A stretch of DNA of 61,511 nt, the filler included, from Pseudomonadota bacterium (GTDB taxonomy: Bacteria > Desulfobacterota > Desulfobacteria > Desulfobacterales > JBDRRP01), in assembly GCA_043825735.1 (NCBI GenBank). It is 4 parts of 4 records of this genome, joined end to end, with 100 filler letters (N's around TTAATTAATTAA, not from the genome) between each part and the next. Parts side by side here need not be neighbours in the genome. Positions count along the whole stretch, not along the records: positions 1 to 16,503 come from JBDRRP010000128.1; 3 more parts are not named here. One strand, given 5' to 3'. The position numbers and the translations under genes were made by a program. The notes under the pieces are model-generated. The model was not told the origin of the DNA. It made no database searches and worked only from the letters and a program-made list of their open reading frames with translations. Position 1 is the stretch's first letter. Each line of letters opens with the position of its first letter. Below are positions 1 to 39,821 of this stretch, one piece after another.

Positions 1-27
1 CACCACACGGATTGCTACGGGAAACCT

Positions 28-1032: not shown

Positions 1033-1042
1033 GGGCGTCCCC

Positions 1043-1612
1043 AAAGGCCCATTGAACATGGCCATCAGATTGTCGGCGACGATATTGAACAGATCGATAT
1101 CGATCCTGAGCTCAGTGGCCAGGGTGCGCATGGTCCACAGCGTTTTGGGGCAGATGTACTTGGCCTCGTCGCTTTCCTCTGTGATGTCCAGGGCGTAATG
1201 CCATTGGATGTTGTAGGAAAGCTGTTCGCAGGCCTGCTGATCGGTCAGATCGTGGTATTGCTGCAGGGCCAGGACACCTAAAACCGTGTGCCCCTCTTTG
1301 GCCGGTCTGCCGGTATGGCTCGTAAATACCAACGCCAGCTTATCGACGGGCAGCAAAGGAAGCACATGCTCCCGAAAAAAACCCGGCCAGTTCTCATCGA
1401 GCATTTTTCTTCGCTTTGGGCTCAATGAGTGCCAGGGGTCAAATAAATGTAGCTGTTTTCTGTGATCGATCCTGATCATGCTGTCCTCATAGCAACATAC
1501 TGATTTTGTTTATGATATATTGCCATGAAGCAAATCAGAAGTCAACGTTAAAAATCAATTTTACGAGAATTTTCTATAGGTTACATGGTGCGGACTTTTT
1601 ACGAACGGATCA
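1043..1612 (-). mobile_element. Truncated IS5/IS1182-like insertion sequence: left end plus N-terminal third of the transposase (ORF 1479..1021)
   Basis: ORF has DUF772-like features (TGRPAKE, LQQYHDLTDQQ, IQWHYALD) and breaks at the RAYT 3' end; candidate terminus TGATCCGTTCGTAAAAAGTC (minus strand) at 1612-1593. Confidence 0.65.
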
Positions 1613-1618
1613 TTGTTG

Positions 1619-4462
1619 TTATCCGGTTTTAGCCTTTCCATTTCTCTCATCCAACACTTTGCGAACCTTCAATGCGAGTGATTTCAGCGTGAAAGGTTTT
1701 TGCAAAAAGGCAACACCCTCTTTCAGTACACCGTGATGTACGATATGGGTGTCCGTATATCCGGACATATAAAGCACCTTTGTCGCCGGACAGAAAGCTA
1801 CCATCCTGCGAGCCAATTCGGGCCCGCTAATTTCAGGCATCACCACGTCAGCAATCAACATATTTATTGAATCGCCATGGGTTCTACATAATTCGAGCGC
1901 TTCCTCACCACCTGCGGCTTCAAGCACAGTGTAGCCATTGTTGACCAGGATGCTACGTGCAGTCTCCCGAACAGATTCATCATCTTCAACCAGCAGTATC
2001 GTTTCCGTGCCTTTTTGCAGCGCCTCCTCAGGTTCTAAGTCCGGAATGACTGTTTCGGTGTCCATTTCAGCGCGGGGATAATAAATCTTGAAGGTTGTCC
2101 CTTGCCCCGGCTCGCTGTAAACCCGGATGAACCCCCCGCTTTGTTTAACTATTCCATAAACCGTTGCCAACCCCAAGCCGGTACCCTGACCCTGGCCCTT
2201 GGTGGTGAAAAAGGGTTCAAAAATGTGAGACAAGGTTTTTTGGTCCATTCCGCAGCCTGAGTCGCTGATAGCGAGCATCACATAGTGGCCTGGCTCAACA
2301 CCGATGTGCTGTTGGATGAAAGTTTTGTCCAGGAAAACATTGGTTGTTTCGATGGTGAGTTTGCCGCCATGCGGCATGGCATCGCGCGAATTGATGGCAA
2401 GGTTCATGATGACCTGATCGATCAGGGTTGGGTCGGCCATGATGCGACCCAGCTTTGCCTCCGACTTGAATACCAGATCGATATCTTCGCCGATCAATCG
2501 TTGGAGGAGCTTCTCTGTATTCGCGACCGCCTGGTTGAGATCCACAATCGCGGGTTGCACCACATGTTTTCGACTGAAGGCGAGAAGCTGGGCAGTCAAC
2601 GAGGCGGCACGCTCTCCGGCCATCCGGATTTGAGTGAGATCCCTGCGCAGCGGTGAATCGTCTGGAAGGCGCATAAGCAAAAGATCACTATAACCCAGGA
2701 CGGCGGACATCAGGTTATTGAAGTCATGGGCAACTCCTCCCGCCAGAATGCCGATGGCCTCCATTTTTACTGCCTGGCGCAGTTGCTCTTCCAGTCCTTT
2801 GCGCTCGGAGACATCCCTGCCGACGATGCAAACGTTTGAGGGACTGCCATCGGTTTCAAGGAGAAGGGTTCCGGTAAACTCAAAAGGCATCTTTTTGCCC
2901 TCTTTACTGACTACAACGGCCTCCAAGCTGGAGCGGCCCTTCTCGATTACCGATTGGAATGCATTTTTGGCGCGTTGAAGATCCGTGCCATCAATGAAGT
3001 CGGTGAACGTCATGGAAGCTATCTCTTCATCGCTATGGCCGGAAAAGTAGGTCACGATCTTGTTCCAGCGTACCAAACGTCCGTTCAAGCCGATCACCAG
3101 AAAAGCATCGCTCATGGCATCCAAGGCATTGTCGACAAACGTTTTTTCTGCTTTCAAGGCCTCTTCCGCCAATTTGCGTTCGGTGATATTTTCACAGACG
3201 ACCAGAATTACGGGTTTTTCGTAGGCGTCATGAATTGTGCGCGCCGCTTCCCTGACCCACATGACGCTTCCGTCGCTGTGTATCTTGCGCACCTCCCAAT
3301 AGTGCACCTTTCCGGGCATTTTCAAACATTCTGCCAGCTGGCATTGCACGGCTTGCTTGTTATCCGGGTGAAAAACTTTTAAAACCGATTTGCCGACCAG
3401 GTCCTGCACGGTATATCCCAATTGTCCGGCGCCGAAGGAATTGACGGACAGCACTGTGCCATGGGCATCCAAGGTAAAATACATCGAGGGGTTGTCTTCG
3501 TATAGAACCTTAAAACGCTCTTCACTCTTGCTCAGTTCCTCCTCGGTCTGTTTGCGGGTGGTGATGTCAAAGAAATAACCGAGAACTGCTGTTTGGTTAT
3601 TGTACTGGATAGGCGTTACGATCGCCCTGAGCCATCGCGCCTCTCCAGCCTTGTTGAAAGCCTGGAACTCGAAAGGCTCCGATCTTTGTGCCTTGAGCAT
3701 CTGGATAGCATGCTGCCGGACAAGCACCTTGAACTCGGGTAGAACAAAAGAGGTGGATTCCTTGCCAATAATTTCTTCCTGACAGAATCCGGTAACCTTT
3801 TGAAAACCTGGATTGACCATCTTTATTATATTTTTTTGAACGATATAAATGCCTATGGGAGCATTTAGAAAGAGCCGGTTGAATATATCCTGCGCCTGCT
3901 CGCGTTCAGCGATTTCGTTTTTTAAGTGTTGGTTGGCCTTTGCAAGTTCAGCGGTTCGCGCCTCACATAGACGTTCCAAGTTGGCATTCAGGTCACGAAC
4001 TGTCTCTTCAGCCCTTTTACGTTCCGTTATTTCATTCCGCAGTCGTTCGTTCTGCGTTTTAAGCTCTGCATGAGCGGCGCACAGGGCCAAATGGGTTTTT
4101 ATACGGGATAGAACGACTTCGATTTCCAACGGCTTGGTCACATAGTCCACGCCTCCGGCTTCGAAACCTTCGACCTTGTTTTCCGTTGAACTCAGCCCCG
4201 TCATGAAAATCACCGGTATATCCCGCGTCTTCTCCCGGGTTTTGAGGCGCCGGCAGGTTTCGAACCCATCCATATCCGGCATGATCACATCCAGCAGGAT
4301 CAGATCGGGTGAGGTCATTTCCACCAGTCGAAGGGCTTTTTCACCGCTCGTTGCCACAATGACCTCGTAACCTTCATTTTCCAGGGCGGTGTGCACCATG
4401 TCGATGCTCGCGATGCTGTCGTCCACCATGAGGATTTTACCGTTACAGCCGTGGATTCCCAT
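1619..4462 (-). CDS. Hybrid sensor histidine kinase (REC-3xPAS-HisKA-HATPase-REC)
   Basis: N-terminal REC (ILLDVIMP), PAS/PAC ends (DITTRK, NITERK, DVSERK), H-box [11 protein letters not shown]-boxes DSGCGM and GTGLGL, C-terminal REC. Confidence 0.95.
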
Positions 4463-4584
4463 TGCTTCACCTCCGGGATTTTATTTCGAAAGACGGCCGC
4501 GTATTGCATGGACTCGAAGAAAGTGAAACCGCCCGCCGACGATTCCTGTCGCCTCAGGGGCAATCATCGCCCGGTCCGCCGGTT

Positions 4585-7500
4585 TCACCTTTTCTTCTCC
4601 TCCGAAGCGATCCAGTTTGCGATGCCTTCATCATCGTACATTGCCGCATAATCCCTTATTTTTTCGCAAAAGTCGCCGTATTGCCCATGCTCGGCCTCCA
4701 GGCCGTCGAGAATCCTTGCGAGCACCGTGAATTCGCACCGCGACGCGCTCTTTTCGATTTCCTGCAGAATGTCCCTGGGCGGCAGACTGAAGGCTTTTTC
4801 CGCCGGCGGCGGCTGTGGCGGATCCGATTTCTCATGGCTTACCAGGCGCCTGGAGACAATTCCCAGGGTTTCACCCAGCACTCTTGCGAAGTGTTCCAGG
4901 CAATCCCCTATTTCGTCCCCTTTCCCACCGGCGGCTTCTTCCAGTTCGGCCGAAGCGTCGCTCAGTGCCGTAGCGCCGAGACTGGCGGCCGCACTTTTGA
5001 TGGAATGGGCCATGCGCCCGACGGTTTGGATATCCCCTGCAGCCAGGCATCGGCGCAGGGCCTCACCGGCGTTGCCGAATTCCCCTTCGAACCGTCTGAG
5101 CATTTTAGCATATAGCTCACGGCGACCTCCCAGGCGTCTCAATGCGCTTGGTTCGTCGAATCCTGCCGCAGTGAGGTCCGGAGCCGCCCCGCGCATGCAA
5201 ATCGCGGGCGTCTGCGCAGCGGCGCCGCCTGCCATCGGGGCCGCGATCCACTTGAGCAGCATCCGCTGCAACTGCTCTTCATTCAGGGGTTTGGAAAGAT
5301 AATCGTCCATGTCGCCGGCAAGGCATTTGTCTTTTTCTCCCTTCAGGGCGTGCGCGGTCACTGCGATGATCGGTGTCCGGGGCCGAGATCGCCGCCCCCG
5401 GCCGGATCGATCGGGGCCTTCGGCTTCTTCATCGCCCACCACCCACCGGCGGACTGCTTCCCAGTTCCGGATTTCCCGTGTGGCGGTGTAGCCATCCATC
5501 TCGGGCATCTGGATGTCCATGAGCACCGCATCATATCCATCCCCGGATTCGGTGATCCTTTCCACTGCCGCTCGACCGTTTTCGGCCACGTCGACCACCA
5601 GGCCGACATCTTCGAGAAAAGCGACCGCCACGTCCCGGTTGAGAGCGTTGTCCTCCACTACCAGTACGCGCCGGCCCCGCAACACGGATAGTTCATCCGA
5701 AAGGTGAACGCTTCGATGGGGCGCATTTTGCGCGATCAACGCCTCGTTTTTACCGAAAACCGTCATGATCGTATTGAACAGATGGGAAGGTTTGACCGGT
5801 TTGAAAAGGGTGGCTTCGACCGGGGTCGGGCGGCGCCGGCTTTCCATCATCTCCAGGCCGTGGGCCGTCACCATGATGATGACGGGAGGTTTCCCGGCAT
5901 CGGCAATGACCGGATCGATGCCGATCCGCTCAGCGGTCTCGAAACCGTCCATGCCCTCCATCTTCCAGTCCAGGAGCACCAACCGGTAAGGGTGGCTCGA
6001 AACGGCCCGGCGCAGTTCATCGAGGGCCAACTCGCCGCTTGCCGCGGCGGAAACCGCAAAGCCGAAGGATTCCAGGATATCGCGCAGTACCTGCCGCGAA
6101 CAGGCGCTGTCGTCCACCACCAGCGTCCTCAGACCGTGAAGCTCGCCGGGGGCACGGATGACGACGCTCTTTGGCTCCTCCCGCCGCCCCAAAAGCACGC
6201 TGAAAGAAAAAGTGCTGCCCCGACCGGGATCGCTGTGGGCCCAGATCTTTCCCTCCATCAATTCGACGAGCCGCCGGCAGATCGCAAGCCCCAGACCGGT
6301 GCCTTCATGCCTGCGGACTATGTAACCGCCGGCCTGGACGAACGGCTCGAAGAGATTGTCAACCATATCGGCGGCAATGCCCAGGCCACTGTCGCGCACC
6401 TGAAATCTCAGGCCGACGCGCTGCGGGAAGTGCCCGGCCTCGTCGTCCACCACGACGGTCAACACGATTTCTCCCTGTTCGGTGAATTTCACGGCGTTGT
6501 CGATCAGATTGATGAGAACCTGTGAAAGCCGCAGCCGGTCTCCCTCCAGCATCCGGGGTACCTCCGGATTGGCGTAAAAGAGGAGTTCCAGACCCTTTTG
6601 CTCCGCACGCTCGCTGAAGAGGTCGGCCAGCGGCTCCAGTAGTTCGTCGAGGGTAAACGGGGTGCACTCCAGTGCCAACCGGCCGGCTTCGACCTTGGAA
6701 AAATCGAGAATGTCATTGATGATCTCCAACAGATTGCCTGAAGCGATCTGGACCTTGTTGAGGTCTTCCCGCTGTTTGACGGTGAGTGCCGGCGACTTGA
6801 GCATCCCGCTGGTGATCCCGAGCACCGCATTGATCGGGGTGCGGATCTCGTGGCTCATGCGGGCCAGAAAATCACTCTTGGCCGCATTGGCCGACTCGGC
6901 CTGCTCCTTGGCGACGAGCAACTCGGCGGTGCGCTCCGCGACCATCACTTCGAGATGATCGCGGTGGGCCTTGATCTCCTCTGCGGCACGGTTTCGCTCC
7001 ATGAGCCGCCACATGCCTTCCATCAGGAGCGTCAGTTGCTGGGCATCCGTCTCGTCGTAGGGATATTCCTTATTGCCGACGCCTGCCACCAGAACGATGC
7101 GGTCATTGACGATCACGGGGACGTTCATGTGACGCGAGAGTCTGACGTGGCCTTCGGGATACCCCTTTTTCCAGGGATTGGGCGCATTGAAGTCGTTGGT
7201 GATGATCGCCTTGCGCTGCCGCACGGCTTCGCCCCACAGCCCGGTCTTGTCGACCGGAAAAATGAGGGGTTTTTCGCTGATGGCACATTCGGCCATAGCG
7301 GTACGGGACCAGAGTTGCATGGTCATGATCGTCTCATCCTCGTTCACAAAGGCCAGATACCCCACTTGGCTCCTGGTCAGCCGGATCGCTTCTTCGAATA
7401 CGAATTCCGTGACTTGCTGGACGGTCGCCTCGGTCATCTGGTTGAGTTTGAGCAAAACGGAAAGTCTCTCGGCATTGAGCCTGAGCGTCTCCTCCGCCCG

Positions 7501-9828
7501 TTTGCGTTCCGTGATGTCCTGAAAGGCGCCGACAATCCCTGCGACCTGGCCATCTTCATCTCGAAAAACACTCTTGCCCCAGATCACCGGCCGGACCACC
7601 CCGTTTTTGTCTACGACCTTGAACTCATAGACCTGTTTTTCAGGATGATCCATCAAATCGAGATCCTTTTGATGGTAAGTCTCTGCATATTCACTGGGCC
7701 AAAGCTCCATAACGGTTTTCCCCGTGTAATACTCCGGGGTAAAACCCATCAAATCGGCAAATGCGTCGTTCACCCCGATGTATCGACCTTGCTTGTCTTT
7801 ATAAAACAGTGGGATGGGTACAGCCGAAATGATCGATGTGACAAACTTCAAGGTTCTGTCAAGGCGTCGATGCGCCCGCTCACGCCCCTCTTCCGCCTTC
7901 ACCCGCTCGGTGATGTCCAGACAGAACTCGGCCATGCCGATGAGCCGTCCGCTGTCGTTTTTGATCGGATAGCCGCGAATAAACCACACACGGCCGCCAG
8001 GGCTGCGGATCTGCGCAGTCTGCGGCTCTCCGGTGTCTCTGGCCAAAAGGACCGGACAGCCGCTGCAGGGTTCGCTGCGTTGATGCCATAGCTCCCAGCA
8101 GCAGCGTCCGACGAGTTCATCCGGTTCCATGTCGATGGAAGTGGCAGCCACACGGTTGGCCCACAAAATCCGCATGTCCGTGTCATGATAGACGACCAGG
8201 TCCAAGGTGCTGTTCAAAAGGAGGGACTTTTCTTTTTCGGCGATCCTCAAGCCCTCCTCGATGCGTTTACGCTCCTCGATTTGCCCTGCCAACTGTTCGT
8301 TGGCCGCTCTGAGTTCGGCCGTGCGTTCCCCGACGCGCCGTTCCAGCCCGGCATGGGCGGTTCGAAGTGCTTCCTCCGCCTGTTTGCGCTCGGTGATATC
8401 GCGGCCGACCACGACCAGCCCCTTGCGCCGTCCGTCGGGATGAAAGGTCGGCACCTTGATGGTGTCGAAAATCCGCTGCGAGCCATCCGGTCGTGGGATC
8501 ACTTCATCGTTTCGGCTTATGGTCCGAGCCTGCCAGGCAGCCTTGTCGGTCTCTTCGCAGCCCTTGAGCGCATCGCGATAGAAGGAGGTGAATTCGGCCA
8601 GTTCACTGTCCGTCATACCCCGGTAGTCTATGTCCTCCAGCCCGAAGAATCGCAGGTTGAATTCATTGGTCTCCAGGTATCGGCCTTCGCCATCCTTGAA
8701 AATGACGAGATCCGGCATGGCATTGATCAGGGTGCGCAGTTGCTCCCGTCTTTCCTTCAACGCTTCCTCGGCCTGCTTGCGGGCGGTGATGAAGCGGGCT
8801 TGCTGCACATTCTGGTAGGCTTTCAGCGAAAGCTCATTGGCCAGCAGGAAAAGCACATCGGCGATCTTGCGGAACTGCCCCGCGGACATCACCGGTACTT
8901 CCTTCAAGGCCCTGCGAAATTCCACTTCATCGGTGCCGATCCTGGCGGCGTAGGCGATAATCTTCTCATCATCGATGGCCTCGTTCATGACCTGCCCGAC
9001 CAGCCAACTGGCGATGTGCCTGCCGCCCAGGGTGATGCTGGCGCCCGCGTCCCAGAGACCGCCGCTGAGGCAGGGCTGGATGACCGGACCATCAGGGTTT
9101 TGCCGGCCGATGATGGAATCCGAATAAAAGCAGTTGGCGCGTCCTTTTTCGGATTTGCGAATGATATCGTTGCACAGCCGGCAAAAATTGCTGGGTCGGG
9201 TAATCGGTGTTCCGTCCGGATGGGTAATCAGGGAGGCCACATTGGTGGCCTGGGCAAAGGCGTCCTGGATTTTCTGAAGGTCGTCGATATTGAAAAGATC
9301 GGAAAATTCGATGTCCTTGGCATCCAGCGGTTCGGTCAAGGCGATCAGCCGTCGGTGGAGCGCTGCTTCCACTTTCCTGCGTTCGTCGATTTCCCGCTGA
9401 AGCAAAATGTTCTGGGCCTTTTCCGCCTCGCGTGTTTTGCGCAAGGAGAGGTGCAGGGCAATTCGGGCCAGGACCTCTTCCACCTCGAAAGGTTTGCTCA
9501 CGCAGTCCACACCGCCCCTTTCGAAGCTTTGAACCTTGATCTCACTGGAGGATCGTTCCGTCGTGAAGATGACCGGCACCTCGCGGATCCGTTCAATGCG
9601 CTTCAACCGCCGGCAGATTTCAAATCCGTCCGAATCGGGCATGACCACCGCCAGCAGGATGATATCCGGCACGATAAAATCGGCCCGGCGGATGGCCTGT
9701 TCTCCCGTGGTCTCCACGAACACGTGATACCCCTGAGTTTCGAGCGCTGCCCTCAGACTGTCGAGGGTCGAAGATCGCTCGTCGACCAACAGGATCCGGG
9801 TTTTTCGGTGAGGGTGCTGGTTTTTCAT
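4585..9828 (-). CDS. Multi-sensor hybrid kinase (pseudo-REC-PocR-3xPAS-GAF-HisKA-HATPase-REC-REC-Hpt)
   Basis: PocR-like segment (LQKIQDAFAQATNVASLI...NFCRLC...GLWDAGASITLGGRHIASWLVGQV), GAF, H-box FLARMSHEIRTP, two RECs, Hpt motif AHSIKSAA. Confidence 0.92.
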   Translation of the reverse strand: MKNQHPHRKTRILLVDERSSTLDSLRAALETQGYHVFVETTGEQAIRRADFIVPDIILLAVVMPDSDGFEICRRLKRIERIREVPVIFTTERSSSEIKVQSFERGGVDCVSKPFEVEEVLARIALHLSLRKTREAEKAQNILLQREIDERRKVEAALHRRLIALTEPLDAKDIEFSDLFNIDDLQKIQDAFAQATNVASLITHPDGTPITRPSNFCRLCNDIIRKSEKGRANCFYSDSIIGRQNPDGPVIQPCLSGGLWDAGASITLGGRHIASWLVGQVMNEAIDDEKIIAYAARIGTDEVEFRRALKEVPVMSAGQFRKIADVLFLLANELSLKAYQNVQQARFITARKQAEEALKERREQLRTLINAMPDLVIFKDGEGRYLETNEFNLRFFGLEDIDYRGMTDSELAEFTSFYRDALKGCEETDKAAWQARTISRNDEVIPRPDGSQRIFDTIKVPTFHPDGRRKGLVVVGRDITERKQAEEALRTAHAGLERRVGERTAELRAANEQLAGQIEERKRIEEGLRIAEKEKSLLLNSTLDLVVYHDTDMRILWANRVAATSIDMEPDELVGRCCWELWHQRSEPCSGCPVLLARDTGEPQTAQIRSPGGRVWFIRGYPIKNDSGRLIGMAEFCLDITERVKAEEGRERAHRRLDRTLKFVTSIISAVPIPLFYKDKQGRYIGVNDAFADLMGFTPEYYTGKTVMELWPSEYAETYHQKDLDLMDHPEKQVYEFKVVDKNGVVRPVIWGKSVFRDEDGQVAGIVGAFQDITERKRAEETLRLNAERLSVLLKLNQMTEATVQQVTEFVFEEAIRLTRSQVGYLAFVNEDETIMTMQLWSRTAMAECAISEKPLIFPVDKTGLWGEAVRQRKAIITNDFNAPNPWKKGYPEGHVRLSRHMNVPVIVNDRIVLVAGVGNKEYPYDETDAQQLTLLMEGMWRLMERNRAAEEIKAHRDHLEVMVAERTAELLVAKEQAESANAAKSDFLARMSHEIRTPINAVLGITSGMLKSPALTVKQREDLNKVQIASGNLLEIINDILDFSKVEAGRLALECTPFTLDELLEPLADLFSERAEQKGLELLFYANPEVPRMLEGDRLRLSQVLINLIDNAVKFTEQGEIVLTVVVDDEAGHFPQRVGLRFQVRDSGLGIAADMVDNLFEPFVQAGGYIVRRHEGTGLGLAICRRLVELMEGKIWAHSDPGRGSTFSFSVLLGRREEPKSVVIRAPGELHGLRTLVVDDSACSRQVLRDILESFGFAVSAAASGELALDELRRAVSSHPYRLVLLDWKMEGMDGFETAERIGIDPVIADAGKPPVIIMVTAHGLEMMESRRRPTPVEATLFKPVKPSHLFNTIMTVFGKNEALIAQNAPHRSVHLSDELSVLRGRRVLVVEDNALNRDVAVAFLEDVGLVVDVAENGRAAVERITESGDGYDAVLMDIQMPEMDGYTATREIRNWEAVRRWVVGDEEAEGPDRSGRGRRSRPRTPIIAVTAHALKGEKDKCLAGDMDDYLSKPLNEEQLQRMLLKWIAAPMAGGAAAQTPAICMRGAAPDLTAAGFDEPSALRRLGGRRELYAKMLRRFEGEFGNAGEALRRCLAAGDIQTVGRMAHSIKSAAASLGATALSDASAELEEAAGGKGDEIGDCLEHFARVLGETLGIVSRRLVSHEKSDPPQPPPAEKAFSLPPRDILQEIEKSASRCEFTVLARILDGLEAEHGQYGDFCEKIRDYAAMYDDEGIANWIASEEKKR

Positions 9829-9862
9829 TATGCCTCCTGCCCTGCCGGGGCCCTGCGGCCAG

Positions 9863-10540
9863 CTACAAAGATCCCACCGATTGTACCCCTGTGCCGGAGA
9901 GCTTCATCGGTAGCGTAGGATTCCTGCTGACCACAAACTCGCCATAATCGTCTCCGATCTCGATGCCTCTGGTTTGGACGCAGTAAAATGTCCCCATTCC
10001 GGCAGGATAGGGCTTGCCATAGGCCAGATCCATAAAGGCGGCGCACATACCGCGCATCATATACGCACTGGGCTGGCCGGCCCGGCCGTACAGGACGACA
10101 TCGCTCTCGTAGTAATCGTAGGCTCTGACAATCATCTTCTGCTTGGGAACAATCTCCTTGATTTCCGTATTGCCCCATCCCCAGACGGAGAAGGTGACGA
10201 AGACGGCATGGAGCATGTCCTCGATGGTTCTGACCATGGTCGACACGATCATGGTCCATTCCCGGGAAAGGATGACTCCGTGAGCGGTATGATACCCGCA
10301 TTGTCGGGCTGCATTCACCAGCAGTTCTTCCATCGACGGCAGCAATTCTTCCGGGACGCTGTTGATGATACGACGGGCAAACCCATTCCAGAAATCGACG
10401 GGCAGCCGCTGGATGTGCACACCGAAAAAGGGGATCAACCCCAGCGCATTGCTCACGACTTTCAGTTTCAATGTCTCTTCAACGATCTTCTCTTTATCGA
10501 TGGCCATGACGGCACTCCCTGATACGCTTCTTGATGGCAT
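9863..10540 (-). CDS. V4R (4-vinyl reductase)-like small-ligand-binding protein
   Basis: GWG motif followed by a beta strand, YMMRGMCAAF helix and cysteine-containing C-terminal segment typical of the V4R/HNOB fold; alternative start 10507. Confidence 0.65.
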   Translation of the reverse strand: MPSRSVSGSAVMAIDKEKIVEETLKLKVVSNALGLIPFFGVHIQRLPVDFWNGFARRIINSVPEELLPSMEELLVNAARQCGYHTAHGVILSREWTMIVSTMVRTIEDMLHAVFVTFSVWGWGNTEIKEIVPKQKMIVRAYDYYESDVVLYGRAGQPSAYMMRGMCAAFMDLAYGKPYPAGMGTFYCVQTRGIEIGDDYGEFVVSRNPTLPMKLSGTGVQSVGSL

Positions 10541-10568
10541 CGCATCTCCGGCCTGAGCGATTCACGTC

Positions 10569-11099
10569 TCAGCCCAGCACAGCCTTGAAAACGGAAACAT
10601 CATGGCCGGCCACCAGGGATCTTTCCTCCCTCACCGTGAAGTTCCCCGGCAGCCGGCCGGTGAACAATGCCGCTGCGGCCGCCACGTAACCCTGAGTGAT
10701 GAAGTTGACCTGCTTGTCCCGCCGCCCCCACTTTTCCAGCCAGCCCTGGTCTACGTGGGAAAATTCCATTTCGGCACAGACGGCATACTTTTCGACACAC
10801 TTGAAGCGGATCTGCCCCATGCCCACGGTTTCCCAATACTGTTCGGTGACGGCAATCCGCTCTTCGAGGCTGCCGGTCCCATACCGGTGGAAGTAGTGGC
10901 CCAGCACTTCGTGGAAAGTCTCTTCGGCCGCCCTGCGCAGATGATAGATACCGTCGAAGTCGTCTGCATCGTCGGCCAACTGGGAGATGAGCGCCGCATA
11001 GTGGTGGGAATGAAGCACGGTGCAGCACTCGTTCAGATACTGACGGCAGCTGTCCGGATCGAACTTTTCAACGATTTCGAGTCGACGTTTTCTGTCCAT
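10569..11099 (-). CDS. V4R-like protein
   Basis: GMGQIRF, FITQGYVAAAAA and VREERSLVAG...SVF pattern matches the V4R layout; VLHSHHY His cluster. Confidence 0.6.
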   Translation of the reverse strand: MDRKRRLEIVEKFDPDSCRQYLNECCTVLHSHHYAALISQLADDADDFDGIYHLRRAAEETFHEVLGHYFHRYGTGSLEERIAVTEQYWETVGMGQIRFKCVEKYAVCAEMEFSHVDQGWLEKWGRRDKQVNFITQGYVAAAAALFTGRLPGNFTVREERSLVAGHDVSVFKAVLG

Positions 11100-11189
11100 A
11101 CCGATTGCCTCCTGTGCCCGATGGATAGGCCCTGGGGATCGAAAAACCGGACCGGTGTCGCAGGCCCCGGCCGCGGGATCCGGCCCCCA

Positions 11190-11837
11190 TCAGCTTTGCC
11201 CGACGCTGCCGTCACGCCGCAATGAAACGCCGATCAGAACGGTTCCCGAACCTGTTTCATTTCTTCCCACAAAGTAGCGCTCTTTCAGGAAAAGATCGGT
11301 CGACAGTGCGGGACTGGCATAGATGATGGATTCGTGCGGCAGCGGGGTCTCATCCGAAGCACACCAGTCTGCGGGAAGGGGTGGAATCTCGAATCGGCAG
11401 ATTCTCTTCATGATATCTCTCGGGAAATCGATCCTGTCCTTGTAGACCGCGAAATTTTTGTTCAAAAACCAGACATGGGGCTGCCTTGCCAGGTGCTCGC
11501 CGGTCGCTTTGTCGCGAACCTCCTCGCCAACGACCTCCTCCCCTTTTTTGAGCAGCAAGGCGGGTTTTCGGCCCCAGTCGAAATCCATGCCCGTGAGCGC
11601 CACGAAAACCAGATCTCTTTCAAGCACTTCAACCATGCCGGTGTTGATCACTTCTCCCAGCCCGGACAGGGACTTTTTCCGGGCATCGGCCTCGAAATCG
11701 CGCACGTTTTCGTAGTCTTCGGCCAGCAGGGGACACACGGCGACGATGCCCCGGCTCTTTTGGAAGGCGGCGATCAATAGGACCGATTCATCCCGGCTTT
11801 GAGAATCTGCTCCCGGTTGTTTCATTTTCTTTGGCAC
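11190..11837 (-). CDS. Hypothetical protein in mta cluster
   Basis: 215-aa ORF, co-oriented between the activase and the V4R genes; no motif recognised with certainty. Confidence 0.7.
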   Translation of the reverse strand: MPKKMKQPGADSQSRDESVLLIAAFQKSRGIVAVCPLLAEDYENVRDFEADARKKSLSGLGEVINTGMVEVLERDLVFVALTGMDFDWGRKPALLLKKGEEVVGEEVRDKATGEHLARQPHVWFLNKNFAVYKDRIDFPRDIMKRICRFEIPPLPADWCASDETPLPHESIIYASPALSTDLFLKERYFVGRNETGSGTVLIGVSLRRDGSVGQS

Positions 11838-11917
11838 CTGTGCATGCCGGCGAATCCGTCAAAGGCCTCCACAAGCGGTGCGGCGTCGTACCGGCCGGCA
11901 CTGCAGCACTGGATCAT

Positions 11918-13648
11918 TTACAGGTCCCGTGTGACGGCTGCCGTCCGAGTGACTATGCTCGGGATCTTTTCATCGTCCATGCAGCGCAACAGCCAGCCGA
12001 GCGAGAAACATTTCCGGATGCATGCCGTTTCACACCTGCGGCATCCAACACCGTTGCACCGGGAAAGATCCAGACGGATTGCATACCCTTGTCCCTCCGC
12101 GTCGATCCGGAGCGCTCTTTCGGGGCAGGCTTGAACGCAGGCACCGTCGCCGCCGCACCCGTCGAAAACGGCCCGGTTCACTCGGCCGATATCATGAATG
12201 GCCACCAATCCCCCGGCGCCGGTATCCTGGATATCGCGGTTCACCGTTTTGATCACCAGCGGATCGGCCGATACCGGCGTTTTCGAAGGAAGCCCGAAAC
12301 GATGCATCAACTCACGGTAAAGCGCCATGGGCATGCCTTCGGTCCAATGGGCCAGTTCCAGAAGAAATACTTTCCTGAACACGGTGCAGGATGCAAACAT
12401 GCAGTGATGGCGCCTCAATCGATCGGCGATCCGCTGCAAGTCCCGAATCCGTCCGGGATTACGGACCAGATCGCGGGCCAGGGCCAGGGAGGTGTTTCCC
12501 ACCTGATAGATCCTTTTTACGTTTGCCGGCACCAGGCCCACCGCCTGGGCCTTTCGAGCATCGACGTAAGTGCCGGAAGCCCCGGACATGTAAGCGGTCT
12601 CAATCTCATCGATGCCGACACCGGCCGCCTGGCACAGGCTGATATGGCCGGCGCGGACCGCGCCGATGGCCTTGCCGGCTTCCGCCAGGTCCTTTTGTGT
12701 GAATCGCAGCCCGTCGGGCAATTTGATATCGCCGTCCAAGGTCCGGATTCGCGGAACGCGGATGAACCCGGCCTGTATTCCCTGGCTGACCAGGGCAACC
12801 ACGCCGGTCCCGGTGATGCCCGCCGCTTTGAGCTCGCCCCTGTCGATCACCCGGCCGGTTGCCGGGTCCACGCTGTCTCCAGGCCGCGGCAGCAGGTACC
12901 CATCGAGAACGAAGGTCCGCAGGCGGCCCCTGAGGGGAGCGTCTCCGGCAACTGCGGTCGCCGGCTGGAAATCGTCGGCTTCAAACTCGACATCACAAAT
13001 GGCGCCGGGAAGCGCCAGCAATCCGTTTTCGATATGCTGGCCCTCCAGGGCCGGGCCGGTGGCCGTCGATCCGGTGTAGACGATACCGCCCGCGATCAGC
13101 GCCATCTCCGCATTGGTGCCGTAGTCCGTGGCGATGGCGATTTCATCCTTGTCCAGCATTCCGCTGTGGATCATCAGGGCCAGCGCATCGGCTCCAATTT
13201 CGTGGCGCACCGAAGGCGGTATATAGACTTCCGCCGCCAGTTCGAGGCCCCGGATCCGGTCCGCCTTCAATACCCTGGCGTCCCGGCAGGGAGAAACCAC
13301 CTTCAGAGCGCTCAATTTTCGCTTTCCCGCAAAGGCCAGGTCCCTGATTTCGATACCTTCGAACAAGGAGAGTTGAATGGGATTTCCGCAGACGGCCAGA
13401 CGCTGGATTCGACTCCGGTCAACGTGCAACGCCGCGATGACCCTGTTCACCGCGCCAATGATCAGTGACTGGGCAATGTCCAGGCCCACCTCCAGGGCGA
13501 AGTGCAGATGATCCATGACATTGGCGCCGGGAAGCGGATGACGGGTCGAAACGGATGTGGACAGGATCCGGCCGTCGTTATCAAGCGCGATGGCCTGGGC
13601 CCGGAAGCCGCTGGTACCCAGATCCATGGCCACGCCGAGTCGATCCAT
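11918..13648 (-). CDS. ramA: Corrinoid protein reductive activase, RamA type (ASKHA ATPase plus C-terminal ferredoxin-like domain)
   Basis: DLGTSGFRAQ, HPLPGANVMDHLHFA, TDYGTNAEMAL, GPALEGQ motifs; C-terminal CxxDxxCxxxCP and CxxxxCxxCxxxC; no N-terminal 2Fe-2S domain. Confidence 0.9.
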   Translation of the reverse strand: MDRLGVAMDLGTSGFRAQAIALDNDGRILSTSVSTRHPLPGANVMDHLHFALEVGLDIAQSLIIGAVNRVIAALHVDRSRIQRLAVCGNPIQLSLFEGIEIRDLAFAGKRKLSALKVVSPCRDARVLKADRIRGLELAAEVYIPPSVRHEIGADALALMIHSGMLDKDEIAIATDYGTNAEMALIAGGIVYTGSTATGPALEGQHIENGLLALPGAICDVEFEADDFQPATAVAGDAPLRGRLRTFVLDGYLLPRPGDSVDPATGRVIDRGELKAAGITGTGVVALVSQGIQAGFIRVPRIRTLDGDIKLPDGLRFTQKDLAEAGKAIGAVRAGHISLCQAAGVGIDEIETAYMSGASGTYVDARKAQAVGLVPANVKRIYQVGNTSLALARDLVRNPGRIRDLQRIADRLRRHHCMFASCTVFRKVFLLELAHWTEGMPMALYRELMHRFGLPSKTPVSADPLVIKTVNRDIQDTGAGGLVAIHDIGRVNRAVFDGCGGDGACVQACPERALRIDAEGQGYAIRLDLSRCNGVGCRRCETACIRKCFSLGWLLRCMDDEKIPSIVTRTAAVTRDL

Positions 13649-13729
13649 TCTGATTTGCCCCCCCCCCGGCGAACCCCGTCCGGGCGTCAGAAACCCGCAG
13701 TTTGCGATCCGGCATCGCCGGTTATTCAG

Positions 13730-15106
13730 CTAAAGACCATAGGACGCTGGATTGAACCCTTTGACTTGTCGATACTTATGCAGACACCGATCGATAAAGT
13801 CGCCTTCGTCATCCGGTAGCGATTCCAATTCCACGACGGCCTTCAGCAAGGCTTCTTTCTCATGGGCCGTCAGGCGCATCAGCGGGTCGGAAAGGATGAT
13901 TTCACCAGCCTTGACGGCGGCGATCCGGGCGCAGGCGTAGTCGCCGTTATTCCGGTTGGAGGCAATGACACGTCCGATTTGCCAGGCGTTGTCGGGTGCC
14001 AGAATCAGGCTGTGCGAATCGCGGTACATATCGGAGTTGACGAGGATTTCCTGCATCTGCCGCTGATAGCCCAATTCGATTGCCGAATTGAGCATGGCGC
14101 AATCGTAACCCAGGATTTCGGCGAAAACCGACGGGGTGGTGGCACCGAACATGTCATGGTATTCGACCGCTTCGTTGCTCCACAGGTCGCAGACGGCCAT
14201 CATCAGGTTGCCGCAGAGATCGGAATGCGCACAGGCGCTGGTTTTTCCTTCAGTGGCGATGGGGATCCCGGTGATCGCCTTGATGATGGGGTTTTCATAG
14301 GCGCAGTCCTTGGCAGGCCCGGTGGCCCCGCATTCATAGGCGATCAGCGAGTTGGCGGCCGACATTGCGCGACACAGGGCGGCAATGACATGGGGTACGT
14401 CTTTAGAGATCATGCCGCCGGCCATGAACATGGCCGTGTTTGCCTGGGAACAGTTGGTATCCCCGCCGGCAATACAGCCGTTCCGGCGGGAGATCTCCAC
14501 GATCCGGGTCCACAGCCATTCCATATCCAGGGCACCCAGGACACCGATGGCAAAGAGCAGACCGACGATGTCGTTGCGGATGATGCTGTGGTCGAAGACT
14601 TCCTTGCCGCCCAGAGATTCAATGGAAAGGATGTCGGCGTACTTGGCGCATTCATCAAAGGCTTCCAGAACCTTGGCAGTGGCATCGCTTTCTCTCAGGT
14701 GGTACATGTCGGGTTTTCGCAGGTCGGCCACTGTCGCCCGGTAAGATGACTTCAATCCGTATCGGCGATGATGGTCATCCATCTGCCGGCCGGCTTGAGA
14801 CGCAATCTCGGCACCCCATTTGGGATTGTTGGTCATCTGATAGATGTGCTCGTTTTCGATCTGCACTGCGGGATGTCCGATGATGACCATGCGTTCCAGG
14901 ATGTCACCGTTGGCTCTTTCATATTCACGCATTAGCGTCCGCAACGTCTTCTCACTGCCCGGCCGGGGATGAGGCTTGACCTCCGGATGCACGTGCCCGC
15001 CGCCAATCACTAGGCCACGTTTGGTGGAGACAGGTTTTCTGGCGGTGCCGAAGACCAACTCGGCGCTGCTGCCATAGGCCATTTCGGTTATCTTGAGCCG
15101 TTTCAT
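13730..15106 (-). CDS. mtaB: Methanol:corrinoid methyltransferase (MT1)
   Basis: MAY...LVFG...GLVIGGG N-terminus, SIESLGGKEVFD, GGDTNCSQANTAMF, GPAKDCAYE, EGKTSACAHSD, DLWSNE; start placed at ATG 15106 after GAGGGAAGG. Confidence 0.93.
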   Translation of the reverse strand: MKRLKITEMAYGSSAELVFGTARKPVSTKRGLVIGGGHVHPEVKPHPRPGSEKTLRTLMREYERANGDILERMVIIGHPAVQIENEHIYQMTNNPKWGAEIASQAGRQMDDHHRRYGLKSSYRATVADLRKPDMYHLRESDATAKVLEAFDECAKYADILSIESLGGKEVFDHSIIRNDIVGLLFAIGVLGALDMEWLWTRIVEISRRNGCIAGGDTNCSQANTAMFMAGGMISKDVPHVIAALCRAMSAANSLIAYECGATGPAKDCAYENPIIKAITGIPIATEGKTSACAHSDLCGNLMMAVCDLWSNEAVEYHDMFGATTPSVFAEILGYDCAMLNSAIELGYQRQMQEILVNSDMYRDSHSLILAPDNAWQIGRVIASNRNNGDYACARIAAVKAGEIILSDPLMRLTAHEKEALLKAVVELESLPDDEGDFIDRCLHKYRQVKGFNPASYGL

Positions 15107-15155
15107 ATCGCCTTCCCTCATTGCCGATGGCCGGTGGATTTGACCGGCGTTCCCA

Positions 15156-15902
15156 TCACCCATTCCATTTGGTGCGCATGGCCTGCCAGGTTTCCCCCGA
15201 AGCGGCATCGTCGGCCATACCAGTTGCCTGGCCAGCCTCCTTGCCATAAATCCCCAGATCGAAACCGGTCACATACTCTTCGTTCACCGCTCCTCCGCCG
15301 CAGGCAAATGGGATGATGAGACCGGCCTGTTTGAGTTGATGGGCGATCCTGGGGAAAGCCGTCATGGTGGTCGTCATCAGCGCGGTGCCCGTGACCATGA
15401 CCGGGTTGTGCTCCTTGCAGGCCGCCACCACTGTTTCGACCGGGACATCGGCGCCCAGATTGATGACTTCATAGCCGTTGGCATTGAGCAGTGCATTGAC
15501 GATAACCTGCCCGATGTCATGGATATCGCCTTCGGCGGTATGCGTTACCACTTTGGCCTTGCGAGCCATGGCCTTGCCCAATTTCCTTTCACATTCGGCG
15601 ATTCCGGCGGACATGGCGTCCGAGGAGAGGATGACCTGCGGCAGGAAATATACCCCTTCCTCCCAGAGGCGGCTTACCTCGTTCATCCCCGGAATCAGTG
15701 CGTTGTTGATGACTTCCATAGGAGGGCTGGTTTCAAGTGCCCTGATCACCGCCGGGACGATCCCGTCCGGGTCCCCTTCCACGACAAACCTCGCGATTTC
15801 TTGCAAGACGGGGTCATCGGAGACCTGCTTGGGCTTTCCAGTCTTTTCCAGGGCAAGGTCATAGCGTCGGAAAATATGAGAGAAATCGTTCAAAACGATC
15901 AC
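15156..15902 (-). CDS. mtaC: Methanol-specific corrinoid protein
   Basis: B12-binding motif EGDIHDIG, GTALMTTTM, CGGGAVN; AAGGAGG RBS before GTG; directly upstream of mtaB. Confidence 0.92.
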   Translation of the reverse strand: MIVLNDFSHIFRRYDLALEKTGKPKQVSDDPVLQEIARFVVEGDPDGIVPAVIRALETSPPMEVINNALIPGMNEVSRLWEEGVYFLPQVILSSDAMSAGIAECERKLGKAMARKAKVVTHTAEGDIHDIGQVIVNALLNANGYEVINLGADVPVETVVAACKEHNPVMVTGTALMTTTMTAFPRIAHQLKQAGLIIPFACGGGAVNEEYVTGFDLGIYGKEAGQATGMADDAASGETWQAMRTKWNG

Positions 15903-16294
15903 GTCATCCTCCTTTCCGAAAGGGTGTCGGTAACAAATCCGCCCACCGATGGGGGGCTTTTAAAAGACGGTGCTGGTGAGGAGTCGATCTTGTGACCGGA
16001 TTGCCCAACGCCCCGGCTTTTGAAGGTACCCGGTTCGCCGGTCACCCCGGTCACGGCCGGGGCTTGATGCGATATTGGGGCTCGAATGATCAAACGATAT
16101 CGTTGATCCGCACTTCAATCTGAATTCAACGTCTTGATACTATGCAATCGAAAAAACCAACGGCGGATTGTCAATTCGCTAAAGAATTGACCAGAAAACC
16201 ACGAATGAAAACAGCAATGATTGTATGCAACTGATGTATAGAAGACAATAACCGACATCTGAATTTCGCTCAAGGAAAATTGGATAATGGGTCA

Positions 16295-16400
16295 GGGTCG
16301 GACAAAGCTATCCGATTGTCATTCCTACAAAAATCTCGAAAACATCCCCTCAAAATTGCCTTAAAACTTACATTTCGCATGTTTCAAAAATAGTTTTCCC
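16295..16400 (+). repeat. Dispersed ~100-bp repeat family B (copy on contig 1)
   Basis: GGGTCGGACAAAGCTATCCG...CGAAAACATCCCCTCAAAATTGCCTTAAAAC matches copies at 29429, 30274 and 37823. Confidence 0.8.
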
Positions 16401-16503
16401 CAATCAGCGAAAAATATTATTTAAATCAGCTATGTAGCTCTAAATTGCCACCAGCGACTATTGAGCATTTTGTACACAACCTCTGGAACTTCAAGAAGCC
16501 TAT

Positions 16504-16603
16504 NNNNNNNNNNNNNNNNNNNNNNNNNNNNNNNNNNNNNNNNNNNNTTAATTAATTAANNNNNNNNNNNNNNNNNNNNNNNNNNNNNNNNNNNNNNNNN
16601 NNN
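16504..16603. other. Artificial contig linker
   Basis: N44-TTAATTAATTAA-N44. Confidence 0.99.
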
Positions 16604-29428: not shown

Positions 29429-29532
29429 TTGGGCTCGGACCAAGCCACCCTCTTAGCATTCCTCCAATAATCCCGAAAACACCCCCTCAAAATTGCCTTA
29501 AAACGCACTTTTCGGGGGCAAAATTGGCGGTT
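29429..29532 (+). repeat. Repeat family B copy
   Basis: 104-bp imperfect direct repeat of 30274-30377. Confidence 0.9.
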
Positions 29533-30273: not shown

Positions 30274-30377
30274 TTGGGGTCGGGCCACGCTACCCGCTTA
30301 GCATTCCATTAATAATCCCGAAAATACCCCCTCAAAATTGCCTTAAAAAGCACTTTTTTGGGGAGAAAATGCCGGTT
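30274..30377 (+). repeat. Repeat family B copy
   Basis: Direct repeat of 29429-29532. Confidence 0.9.
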
Positions 30378-37822: not shown

Positions 37823-37921
37823 ACACCAAGCTATCCGGCGGTCATTCCGACAGAAATCTCGAAAATGCCTCCTTCAGATTGCCTTAAAACGCACTTTTCA
37901 GGTGTAAAATAGTCGGTTTGA
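37823..37921 (+). repeat. Repeat family B copy
   Basis: CCAAGCTATCCG...CTCGAAAA...ATTGCCTTAAAACGCACTTTTC. Confidence 0.75.
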
Positions 37922-39721: not shown

Positions 39722-39821
39722 NNNNNNNNNNNNNNNNNNNNNNNNNNNNNNNNNNNNNNNNNNNNTTAATTAATTAANNNNNNNNNNNNNNNNNNNNNNN
39801 NNNNNNNNNNNNNNNNNNNNN
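39722..39821. other. Artificial contig linker
   Basis: N44-TTAATTAATTAA-N44. Confidence 0.99.

Follow-up and report, generated by a model that had tools for sequence, protein, structure and literature searches.

The window analysed here, a 61,511-nucleotide stretch of DNA from a member of the Desulfobacterales, consists of four contigs joined by N spacers, and its positions 1-16503 are the whole of contig C128. An ORF and Pfam survey of this contig gave eight co-oriented genes, all on the minus strand: in the direction of transcription, mtaC, mtaB, ramA, a gene for a hypothetical protein (hyp215), two small genes (S176 and S225) and two genes for hybrid histidine kinases (HK1747 and HK947). 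The first-pass annotation had listed the same genes, with a PocR domain in one of the kinases, and Pfam bears this out. Ribosome-binding sites and gaps of 34-122 b (49, 81, 80, 90, 61, 34 and 122 b, from mtaC onward) give the genes an operon-like layout, and a terminator scan found no terminator-like site in the gaps other than a weak one between the two kinase genes. Overall counts in the promoter and terminator scan of C128 were at chance level. Two minus-strand sites resemble sigma-70 promoters, one at 16444-16416 within the terminal repeat and one at 16248-16220, which is no more than chance would give, and a sigma-54 consensus scan returned 71 matches versus 72.9 expected, with none in the gaps and none upstream of mtaC, where up to two mismatches were permitted.

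The first genes make up a methanol methyltransferase module. mtaC (15156-15902, minus strand) encodes a 248-aa methanol corrinoid protein of the MtaC type, with a B12-binding_2 cap (PF02607, 78.7 bits), a B12-binding Rossmann domain (PF02310, 74.1 bits) and a DxHxxG motif, DIHDIG, at residues 126-131; its score of 262 bits with the NF040655 MtaC model is under the equivalog cut-off. mtaB (13730-15106, minus strand) encodes a 458-aa methanol:corrinoid methyltransferase (MT1), a full-length member of PF12176 (E = 1.2e-198, 661 bits, profile positions 3-460 of 460) that scores 647 bits with NCBIfam MtaB_Meth, under its methanogen equivalog cut-off of 720. The mtaB ORF is open to 15247; we placed the likely start at the ATG at 15106 because it stands behind the ribosome-binding site GAGGGAAGG and gives a length in keeping with that of relatives (455-477 aa). 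This is the sole MtaB of the assembly. ramA (11918-13648, minus strand) encodes a 576-aa reductive activase of corrinoid proteins (TIGR04270, 708 bits versus a cut-off of 500) with the Pfam domains RACo_C_ter, Raco_middle and Fer4_7. The product of hyp215 (11190-11837, minus strand; 215 aa) has no match in Pfam or NCBIfam; profile searches with it and with S225 against PDB sequences gave none at E ≤ 1, and in the ESM Atlas its own model has a pLDDT of 0.33, with no usable match.

Both ends of C128 are IS repeats. At the kinase end, Pfam identifies a Y1_Tnp (IS200-like) gene (28-1032, plus strand) and a DUF772 transposase fragment (1021-1479, minus strand), which together are the flanking IS remnant noticed earlier. 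Unitigs over positions 1-1028 are about twice as deep as those of the cluster (43.6 versus 21.7-24.6), and copies or parts of this IS sequence were found on contigs C34, C72 and C73. On the upstream side of mtaC, about 465 b of non-coding, partly AT-rich DNA without mtaA (15903-16366) lead into a multi-copy IS end (16367-16503), where the assembly breaks. The Logan unitig over these terminal 137 b has a depth of 78.8 versus 24.6 for the cluster (about threefold) and extends past the contig end. The same repeat (137-157 b) forms an end of both C132 and C124 and has an internal copy in C28, where it overlaps the 3' end of a gene with DUF4277, a transposase domain. Mis-binning of C128 was considered and rejected: its GC content is 0.567 versus 0.575 for the genome, and since its tetranucleotide correlation of 0.955 ranks only 22nd lowest among 93 contigs, it is no outlier. 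Among sequencing runs, X1 alone is listed as containing this DNA, of which it may be the source, and no RNA run is so listed. RNA run X2 yielded no contig on the window; the five that run X3 yielded are short (31-158 b), fall at 2197-2227 and 8369-8404, have loose ends on both sides and were not read as expression.

The V4R-fold pair and the hybrid kinases

S176 (10569-11099, minus strand; 176 aa) and S225 (9863-10507, minus strand; 214 aa) had both been labelled V4R-like. The S225 ORF is open to 10540, and the ATG at 10507 was chosen from an alignment with homologues of 197-201 aa. Neither protein matches any Pfam or NCBIfam family even at E ≤ 10, the V4R profile (PF02830) included; it is predicted structure, together with V4R matches in homologues, that supports the label. 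In Foldseek, the AF2 model of S176 (pLDDT 91) aligns with the PoxR/MopR sensor domain (E = 3e-8, TMq 0.77, 172 columns) and that of S225 (pLDDT 78) with MopR (E = 1.5e-7, TMq 0.66, 201 columns), so that both are predicted to adopt the XylR_N plus V4R fold of the MopR/PoxR/DmpR A-domain. When 16 relatives were scanned with the V4R profile (11 fused forms, plus three of mid-length and one short), six scored above the cut-off and 11 at E ≤ 0.01. The pair from genome G272 reached 30.5 and 26.8 bits (cut-off 31; E = 3.8e-7 and 5.4e-6).

S176 and S225 show no significant similarity to each other by BLASTP, and their profile-profile comparison is weak (probability 45%). They are predicted to form a heterodimer: the modelled complex has an ipSAE of 0.94 in all three runs, against 0.00 for the best of three controls. 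In the benchmark, 116 of 157 solved complexes reach this score, as do 2 of 215 mismatched pairs. Partner pLDDT is 86-87, and at least 98% of contacts are shared between runs; known structures of MopR and PoxR dimers may have contributed to the prediction. The predicted interface brings H30, H32, H33 and H115 of S176 together with C70, H73, W109 and W111 of S225, and the invariant residues of S176 are H30, H32, H33, S114, H115 and D117.

The order S176-then-S225 is kept in 73 of 80 metagenome loci, and the contigs of the other seven end about 100 b or less after S176. In many relatives the two are fused into a single chain: among the 150 best representatives, 61 measure 339-451 aa and have their S225-like part C-terminally, and none is longer than 451 aa; in both of those tested, the N-terminal half is S176-like. 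Chemoreceptor genes adjoin the pair in all four genome loci and lie within 4 kb of it in 19 of the 80 metagenome loci; the chemoreceptors have membrane anchors and lack a sizeable periplasmic domain. In none of the 84 other loci is there an mtaB, mtaC, ramA or hyp215 gene within 4 kb of the pair. S225 of C128 is 56-62% identical to chemoreceptor-linked pairs, and the C128 pair is 30-37% identical to the mta-linked ones (G272 and G339). Pfam found nothing in the ORFs of about 93 aa upstream of distant V4R pairs.

The sensor domains of the sigma-54 activators MopR, PoxR and DmpR, whose fold S176 and S225 are predicted to share, dimerise. Domains of this type bind phenols, according to the titles of PDB entries. 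Unlike them, S176 and S225 stand alone as two different subunits, at 12-17% identity, have another set of invariant residues and lack AAA+ and HTH domains; with 176-214 aa and no further domain, they are not activators of the XylR/DmpR type. Stand-alone sensors encoded beside kinases or chemoreceptors are known in the H-NOX family, and by this general comparison the S176/S225 genes resemble H-NOX genes in that a small cytoplasmic sensor adjoins a kinase or chemoreceptor gene. S225 has weak structural matches to H-NOX chains in Foldseek (E about 2e-3, TMq 0.41-0.43); unlike the single-chain H-NOX, S176 and S225 are a predicted heterodimer. A literature search combining V4R with methanol, corrinoid, chemotaxis or sensing found, in the text available to it, no paper on stand-alone V4R pairs.

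Downstream of the pair, HK1747 (4585-9828, minus strand; 1747 aa) has the Pfam architecture REC-PocR-PAS x3-GAF-HisKA-HATPase-REC(s)-Hpt, and HK947 (1619-4462, minus strand; 947 aa) that of REC-PAS x3-HisKA-HATPase-REC. Both are soluble: the sole hydrophobic stretch of HK1747 is barely above threshold and falls within its first REC domain, and HK947 has none above threshold. The PocR domain of HK1747 (PF10114, residues 177-338) scores 171 bits versus a cut-off of 23.9. Judged by their domains, HK1747 (HisKA, HATPase_c, REC and Hpt) and HK947 (HisKA, HATPase_c and REC) would be equipped for a phosphorelay; no response regulator with an output domain is encoded on C128. Close homologues of the PocR kinase (at least 52% identity over the PocR part) occur in about 35 sampled genomes, only four of which have MtaB. 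Since these homologues are mostly in MtaB-free genomes, this PocR clade is unlikely to be methanol-specific. The 1.5-kb flanks of the 29 closest PocR-kinase loci hold no V4R or mta genes (0 of 29).

Related mta clusters and the missing MT2

A single-protein scan of genome contigs gave three loci only. For comparison we sampled 401 genomes of the order, and 17 of these, the window's own included, encode MtaB. The canonical cluster of the 16 other genomes reads HK, sigma-54 RR, mtaA, mtaC, cobW, sigma-54 activator, mtaB, 108-aa gene, ramA, hyp215. The mtaC, mtaB, ramA and hyp215 genes of C128 are orthologous to these and in the same order (MtaC is 70-80%, MtaB 63-74% and RamA 52-63% identical). 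Unlike its relatives, C128 lacks mtaA, cobW, the sigma-54 activator between mtaC and mtaB, the 108-aa gene, and the upstream kinase with its sigma-54 regulator.

Sensory genes also adjoin the clusters of some relatives. Namely, a PAS-PAS-GAF-HisKA_3 kinase with a REC-LuxR regulator is found beside the mta cluster in 5 of the 16, the kinase lying downstream of hyp215 in four and diverging from the other end of the cluster in G272. V4R genes and a kinase flank the cluster in two of the 16: a single V4R gene precedes the PAS-GAF kinase in G339, and in G272 it is preceded by a V4R pair whose genes overlap the kinase gene. In the neighbourhood survey, a check that the first-pass annotation had called for, the exact trio of mta genes, V4R pair and PocR kinase is unique to C128 within this sample. 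Neither MtaB nor S176 was found in a genome of the same genus (97% complete) or one of the same family (85% complete). The closest metagenome homologues are 77-87% identical. One homologue of hyp215, at 63% identity, and one of S176, at 77%, are both given with a longest contig of 16,260 b, a shared figure that hints at recurrence of the hyp215-S176 junction in another organism.

Homologues of hyp215 are present in 33 of the 401 genomes. In 12 of the 14 other mta clusters with both genes visible, hyp215 lies directly downstream of ramA, and it adjoins ramA in the other two; in G339 (863-aa ORF) and G246 (761-aa ORF) it is fused to RamA. Fusion in two genomes and adjacency in most loci examined point to hyp215 as a putative RamA accessory, not an MT2 substitute.

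The absence of an MT2 gene from C128 had been remarked earlier, and profile searches agree, finding no URO-D or pterin-binding gene on the contig. The search of the genome that had been suggested found no mtaA orthologue in the 6.8-Mb assembly, the best match being 23% identical versus 77-81% among the MtaA proteins of relatives; C120 has a URO-D and a pterin-binding gene, and C37 a URO-D gene. A complete Mta system (MT1, corrinoid protein and MT2) is therefore not present in the assembly. Where related loci show the upstream side of mtaC, its immediate neighbour there is mtaA (12 of 12). Because C128 ends within a repeat only 601 b beyond mtaC, the absence applies to the assembly and not necessarily to the organism. 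A rearrangement together with a break in the assembly best explains the missing MT2, and MtaBC without MT2 should not be taken as new chemistry.

PocR regulators in corrinoid pathways

In acetogens, mta operons begin with the gene for MtaR, a PocR-AraC protein, and an mtaR mutant does not grow on methanol, according to the available text of two reports (PMC13602510, PMC13644212). C128 resembles these MtaR-run operons of Eubacterium limosum and Acetobacterium woodii in having a PocR domain in an operon-like unit with mtaB and mtaC; there, as far as the same text goes, the domain is proposed to sense methanol or a derivative. In contrast to the acetogen arrangement, where the first gene encodes PocR joined to an AraC DNA-binding domain, the C128 PocR domain sits in a 1747-aa hybrid kinase downstream of the enzymes. 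None of the eight proteins has an AraC or other HTH domain, so that DNA-binding output is lacking, and two V4R-fold proteins are interposed. C128 is also like the mec (dichloromethane) cassette, in which, in the portion of the source available, a PocR histidine kinase, MecA of MecA/MecD, is clustered with a corrinoid protein and a RACo-type activase (10.1101/2021.08.30.458270). As that portion describes it, MecA pairs with a response regulator within the cassette, whereas C128 has two hybrid kinases and an Hpt domain without a regulator, and MtaB as its substrate enzyme. The first-pass remark that no described system with such a layout was known is true of the exact layout; PocR regulators of mta genes and a PocR kinase in a corrinoid cassette are in print.

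Interpretation of the locus

We favour, with moderate confidence, the reading that C128 carries a cytoplasmic sensory phosphorelay attached to a rearranged, cut-down mta module. The first module, mtaC, mtaB, ramA and hyp215, would methylate MtaC from methanol and keep its corrinoid reduced. It would have lost its link to mtaA, cobW and the sigma-54 activator gene, all of which belong to the canonical cluster, probably by IS-mediated rearrangement, given the IS repeats at both contig ends. With the module split from mtaA, MT2 would lie elsewhere, in unassembled or unbinned DNA, or another methyltransferase would take its role. Of two branches offered by the first-pass annotation, the one that combined an MT2 elsewhere with an elaborate phosphorelay is the better. 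The missing MT2 coincides with an IS-type repeat and a break in the assembly. The second module would take the place, next after hyp215, in which some relatives have a kinase and a regulator. The V4R-fold heterodimer, with its conserved interface His and Cys, would most likely be a stand-alone ligand or cofactor sensor modulating the adjacent soluble hybrid kinase, HK1747, which has a PocR small-molecule sensor domain of its own. Phosphate would then pass through REC and Hpt domains to the second hybrid kinase and on to a putative response regulator encoded off C128. The analysis shows the gene content, the folds, how the pair is conserved, its predicted assembly as a heterodimer and the layouts in relatives; we infer a relay that is responsive to methanol, or to the state of methylotrophic metabolism, and that controls the mta genes.

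The segment is bounded by IS sequences, so its juxtapositions could be accidental, and since the assembly has no mtaA orthologue, the mta module may be a non-functional remnant. IS rearrangement could have placed a general V4R-pair/hybrid-kinase module beside such a remnant, the relay sensing something unrelated to methanol and controlling something else. We regard this as possible, if rather on the unlikely side. It accords with the IS repeats, with the four genes missing from C128 but present in relatives (mtaA, cobW, the sigma-54 activator and the 108-aa gene), with a V4R pair that normally accompanies chemoreceptors and has no corrinoid genes near it elsewhere (84 of 84 loci), with a PocR kinase clade common in MtaB-free genomes, and with close kin that carry neither module. 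It sits less well with the tight same-strand spacing without clear terminators, or with the kinase and regulator that follow hyp215 at the same place in 4 of 16 relatives (and diverge from the other end of the cluster in a fifth), two of these five having V4R genes as well; the hinted recurrence of the hyp215-S176 junction (16,260 b for both homologues) also argues against accident. So does the recurrence of PocR domains with corrinoid pathways, in the available text of three reports (PMC13602510, PMC13644212, 10.1101/2021.08.30.458270).

The favoured reading is compatible with an MT2 supplied in trans, mtaCB being functional without a dedicated mtaA. The candidates are the pterin-binding or URO-D gene of C120, which lie with a corrinoid protein, an MFS transporter and a RACo activase (pterin-binding gene, 81.6 bits), and the URO-D gene of C37 (148 bits), found with a corrinoid protein, a DUF1638 gene and a hybrid kinase. 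We consider such a supply unlikely, as these URO-D genes are just 22-24% identical to the MtaA of related mta clusters and each locus already has a corrinoid protein of its own. Very improbable is the other first-pass branch, in which the V4R pair or hyp215 stands in for MT2, or else reads or discharges methyl-MtaC. A contig without MT2, the position of these genes directly downstream of mtaCB-ramA and the conserved His/Cys at the predicted interface would fit it, but hyp215 accompanies RamA in clusters that have mtaA, two genomes even encoding the two as one fused protein, 84 loci carry the V4R pair without corrinoid genes, and its fold is that of ligand-sensor domains, unlike any known methyltransferase in Foldseek. 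Overall, what the first-pass annotation observed at this locus stands; the role it offered for these proteins in reading or discharging methyl-MtaC is not supported.

To a bolder proposal we give a slim chance: that S176 and S225 are a new class of stand-alone cytoplasmic sensor, with the interface His and Cys as a ligand, metal or cofactor site, and that the mta-linked copies report methanol or the state of corrinoid methyl transfer to kinases, as other copies would report to chemoreceptors. The pair is in any case a good target for biochemistry, being small, soluble and confidently predicted, with an obvious candidate site. Little is in print on the control of methanol methyltransferase genes in anaerobic bacteria outside acetogens. 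Beside mta clusters we find three regulatory inputs, namely, sigma-54 systems, a PAS-GAF kinase with a LuxR regulator, and on C128 a PocR hybrid kinase, as well as an uncharacterised, strongly conserved predicted V4R heterodimer placed beside such clusters in two separate clades. The RamA-hyp215 fusion points to an unrecognised accessory of corrinoid reductive activation. If the proposal for the V4R pair were true, methylotrophic sulfate-reducer-like bacteria would have a dedicated C1-substrate sensing relay, distinct from MtaR.

Gene content and boundaries of the mta contig

The 61.5-kb window comprises four contigs (C128, C131, C133, and C142), and the contig under study, C128, is wholly covered as window 1-16503; the assembly containing it spans 6.8 Mb in 160 contigs. 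Between the four contigs stand N spacers that contain a ttaattaattaa linker (window 16504-16603, 39722-39821, and 57900-57999), so gene adjacency across the spacers is meaningless. C128 carries a row of eight open reading frames (ORFs) on the minus strand, with intergenic gaps of 34 to 122 b. On sequence criteria, the assignments of mtaC (corrinoid protein), mtaB (MT1), and ramA (activase) can be considered solid: MtaB corresponds to PF12176 (E = 1.2e-198), RamA scores 708 bits for TIGR04270 (cutoff, 500), and MtaC contains a DxHxxG motif. Two hybrid kinases, HK1747 (REC-PocR-PAS x3-GAF-HisKA-HATPase-REC[s]-Hpt) and HK947 (REC-PAS x3-HisKA-HATPase-REC), look soluble. The small proteins hyp215, S176, and S225 (215, 176, and 214 aa, the last from its chosen start) had no Pfam or NCBIfam match and have no paralogue in their own genome. 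One Logan contig from sequencing run X1 omits 453 b within HK1747 (window 7917-8371; depth of 5.95 versus ~25). Repeated PAS-linker segments (...ITERKQAEEAL...) flank the gap, which could reflect either a minor variant carrying a deletion or an artifact of repeat collapse.

Upstream of mtaC lie 464 b of noncoding, partly AT-rich sequence and then 137 b of a repeat that extends past the contig end, with a Logan unitig depth of 78.8 versus 24.6 for the cluster. The same repeat terminates contigs C132 and C124, and its copy on C28 overlaps the 3' end of a gene with DUF4277, which we take to be a transposase domain. The opposite end of C128 carries an IS200-like gene, at twofold depth, and a DUF772 fragment. 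With repeats at both ends, the mta-kinase segment is thus bracketed by IS repeats. Its composition gave no indication of misbinning, and MtaB and S176 are both absent from the genomes of the same genus and the same family, which argues that the segment is accessory. An ~83-b element is also found 5' of mtaC (window 16295-16378). Three more copies, at 77 to 83% identity, are located on C131 (12829-12911, 13674-13745, and 21222-21296, i.e., window 29432-29514, 30277-30348, and 37825-37899), and copies occur on C78, C84, and C40 too.

A predicted V4R heterodimer

The first-pass annotation had called S176 and S225 V4R-like, and this label proved right. Their AF2 models (pLDDT of 91 and 78, respectively) match the phenol-sensor domains of PoxR, MopR, and DmpR (S176, E = 3e-8 and TMq of 0.77; S225, E = 1.5e-7 and TMq of 0.66), homologues match Pfam V4R, and a few JGI records bear the name “predicted hydrocarbon binding protein.” The relationship of the two families to each other is faint. 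Of 80 metagenome loci, 73 have S176 followed by S225, and the remaining 7 lie on contigs that stop just past S176; the two genes are also adjacent in all four genome loci. The predicted complex scored 0.94 in three runs, against 0.00 for the best control; partner pLDDT was 86 to 87, and at least 98% of contacts were shared between runs. Among solved complexes, 116 of 157 attained this mark; among mismatched pairs, 2 of 215 did. Solved MopR/PoxR dimers may contribute to the result. Moreover, among the best 150 of 281 representative clusters, 61 measure 339 to 451 aa and have the S225-like part in the C-terminal half, and the N-terminal half was S176-like in both of those tested. These gene fusions provide independent support for the pairing. 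The predicted interface contains invariant residues of S176 (H30, H32, H33, and H115) and S225 (C70, H73, W109, and W111), which suggests a composite site across the two proteins.

None of mtaB, mtaC, ramA, and hyp215 lies within 4 kb of the pair in 84 other V4R-pair loci. Chemoreceptor genes adjoin it in all four genome loci; of the 80 metagenome loci, many of them short, 19 have such a gene within 4 kb. The chemoreceptors examined are membrane anchored and lack a sizeable periplasmic domain, which fits a cytoplasmic input. More distant V4R pairs (37 to 45% identical) are preceded by a class-V aminotransferase gene, present in 14 of 29 loci scanned, and by a conserved one-cysteine ORF of ~93 aa (11 of 12 small ORFs align). 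Both genes are 5' of the pair in L055, L059, L060, L064, L068, L069, L072, L084, L087, L092, L096, L103, and L062 and 3' of it in L101. The ORF shows the motif VEDCFDGS...FPRPFF...KGVEG and has no homologue in the window's genome; its aminotransferase neighbor is cysteine desulfurase-like. The V4R pair is the truly uncharacterized part of the locus.

Sensors and kinases beside mta clusters

Among 401 genomes sampled from the same order, 17, including the window's own, encode MtaB, and we compared the mta surroundings in all 16 others. A PAS-PAS-GAF-HisKA_3 kinase and a REC-LuxR regulator adjoin 5 of these 16 clusters (L160, L162, L169, L140, and L144); they lie 3' of hyp215 in four, and in genome G272 they diverge from the other end of the cluster. 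These neighbors come on top of the two sigma-54 regulators, one encoded within the mta cluster and one upstream of it. In genome G339, one S225-like gene precedes the mta-adjacent kinase, and in G272, a V4R pair precedes the kinase gene and overlaps it. Between these two genomes, the mta-linked V4R genes (V4Rb) share 65% identity, but they are only 30 to 37% identical to the window's pair; chemoreceptor-linked S225s are 56 to 62% identical to that of the window. We infer from these identities that V4R sensors came to lie next to mta clusters on at least two occasions.

A link between sensing and mta genes is also favored by published associations. MtaR, a PocR-AraC protein whose gene comes first in the mta operons of acetogens, is required for growth on methanol (PMC13602510, PMC13644212); MecA is a PocR kinase encoded in the mec cassette (10.1101/2021.08.30.458270); and Methanosarcina kinases also carry PocR (PMC11784639). 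PocR domains thus recur with corrinoid pathways (PMC13602510, PMC13644212, 10.1101/2021.08.30.458270). Alternatively, the mta and signaling modules may form an accidental mosaic, a tentative explanation that we consider possible but rather doubtful. PocR kinases whose PocR part is 52 to 64% identical occur in ~35 sampled genomes, only 4 of which have MtaB, and the 29 closest PocR-kinase loci have neither V4R nor mta genes in their 1.5-kb flanks. Furthermore, no output regulator is encoded on C128, and the IS boundaries of the segment weigh against the link as well. Besides C128, a close PocR kinase shares a contig with mta genes only in genome G298, whose kinase (C66:78260-78895; PocR part 63% identical) lies ~8.7 kb 5' of its mta cluster.

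The missing MT2 and the place of hyp215

The related clusters share a constant layout: kinase, sigma-54 regulator, mtaA (MT2; URO-D family), mtaC, cobW, sigma-54 activator, mtaB, 108-aa gene, ramA, and hyp215. In all 12 related loci having that side on the contig, mtaA is immediately 5' of mtaC. Given this layout and the repeat and unitig data, the expected position of mtaA coincides with an IS junction at which the assembly also breaks. C128 has no URO-D or pterin-binding gene, and the assembly contains no mtaA orthologue, the top match being 23% identical versus 77 to 81% among relatives. The same assembly carries two further corrinoid systems. One of them (C120:1273-6994, L170) encodes a corrinoid protein, a URO-D protein, an MFS transporter, a pterin-binding methyltransferase, and a Fer2-type RACo activase; judged by its genes, it is a complete-looking methyltransferase system that could be a source of methyl-THF-forming MT2. 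Supply of MT2 in trans, to which we assign a low probability, is compatible with the reading we prefer and does not compete with it. The other system (C37:1553-5947, L171) has genes for a corrinoid protein, a URO-D methyltransferase-like protein, a DUF1638 protein, and a PAS hybrid kinase in one row and is a second kinase-linked corrinoid cluster of this genome.

Homologues of hyp215, an unannotated family with one invariant cysteine (C143) that accompanies RamA at most loci examined, occur in 33 of the 401 genomes. Fourteen other mta clusters show both hyp215 and ramA, with hyp215 immediately 3' of RamA in 12 and adjoining it in the remaining 2; the RamA proteins of hyp215-bearing mta clusters are 52 to 63% identical to the window's. 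Single-ORF fusions of RamA and hyp215 exist in G339 (863 aa; L140:2930-5521) and genome G246 (761 aa; L143:8559-10844). By this association, which coexists with mtaA, hyp215 is a RamA companion rather than an MT2 stand-in, and the earlier proposal that hyp215 or the V4R proteins discharge MtaC in place of MT2 is very improbable.

Overall, the reading we prefer, with slightly more conviction than doubt, is that of a rearranged mta module whose MT2 gene would be encoded elsewhere. Joined to this module, the putative V4R heterodimer and the PocR hybrid kinase would form a cytoplasmic phosphorelay that probably monitors a methylotrophic substrate or state. PocR-type sensing beside corrinoid methyltransferase genes is a known kind of arrangement, of which the C128 layout represents a new version.
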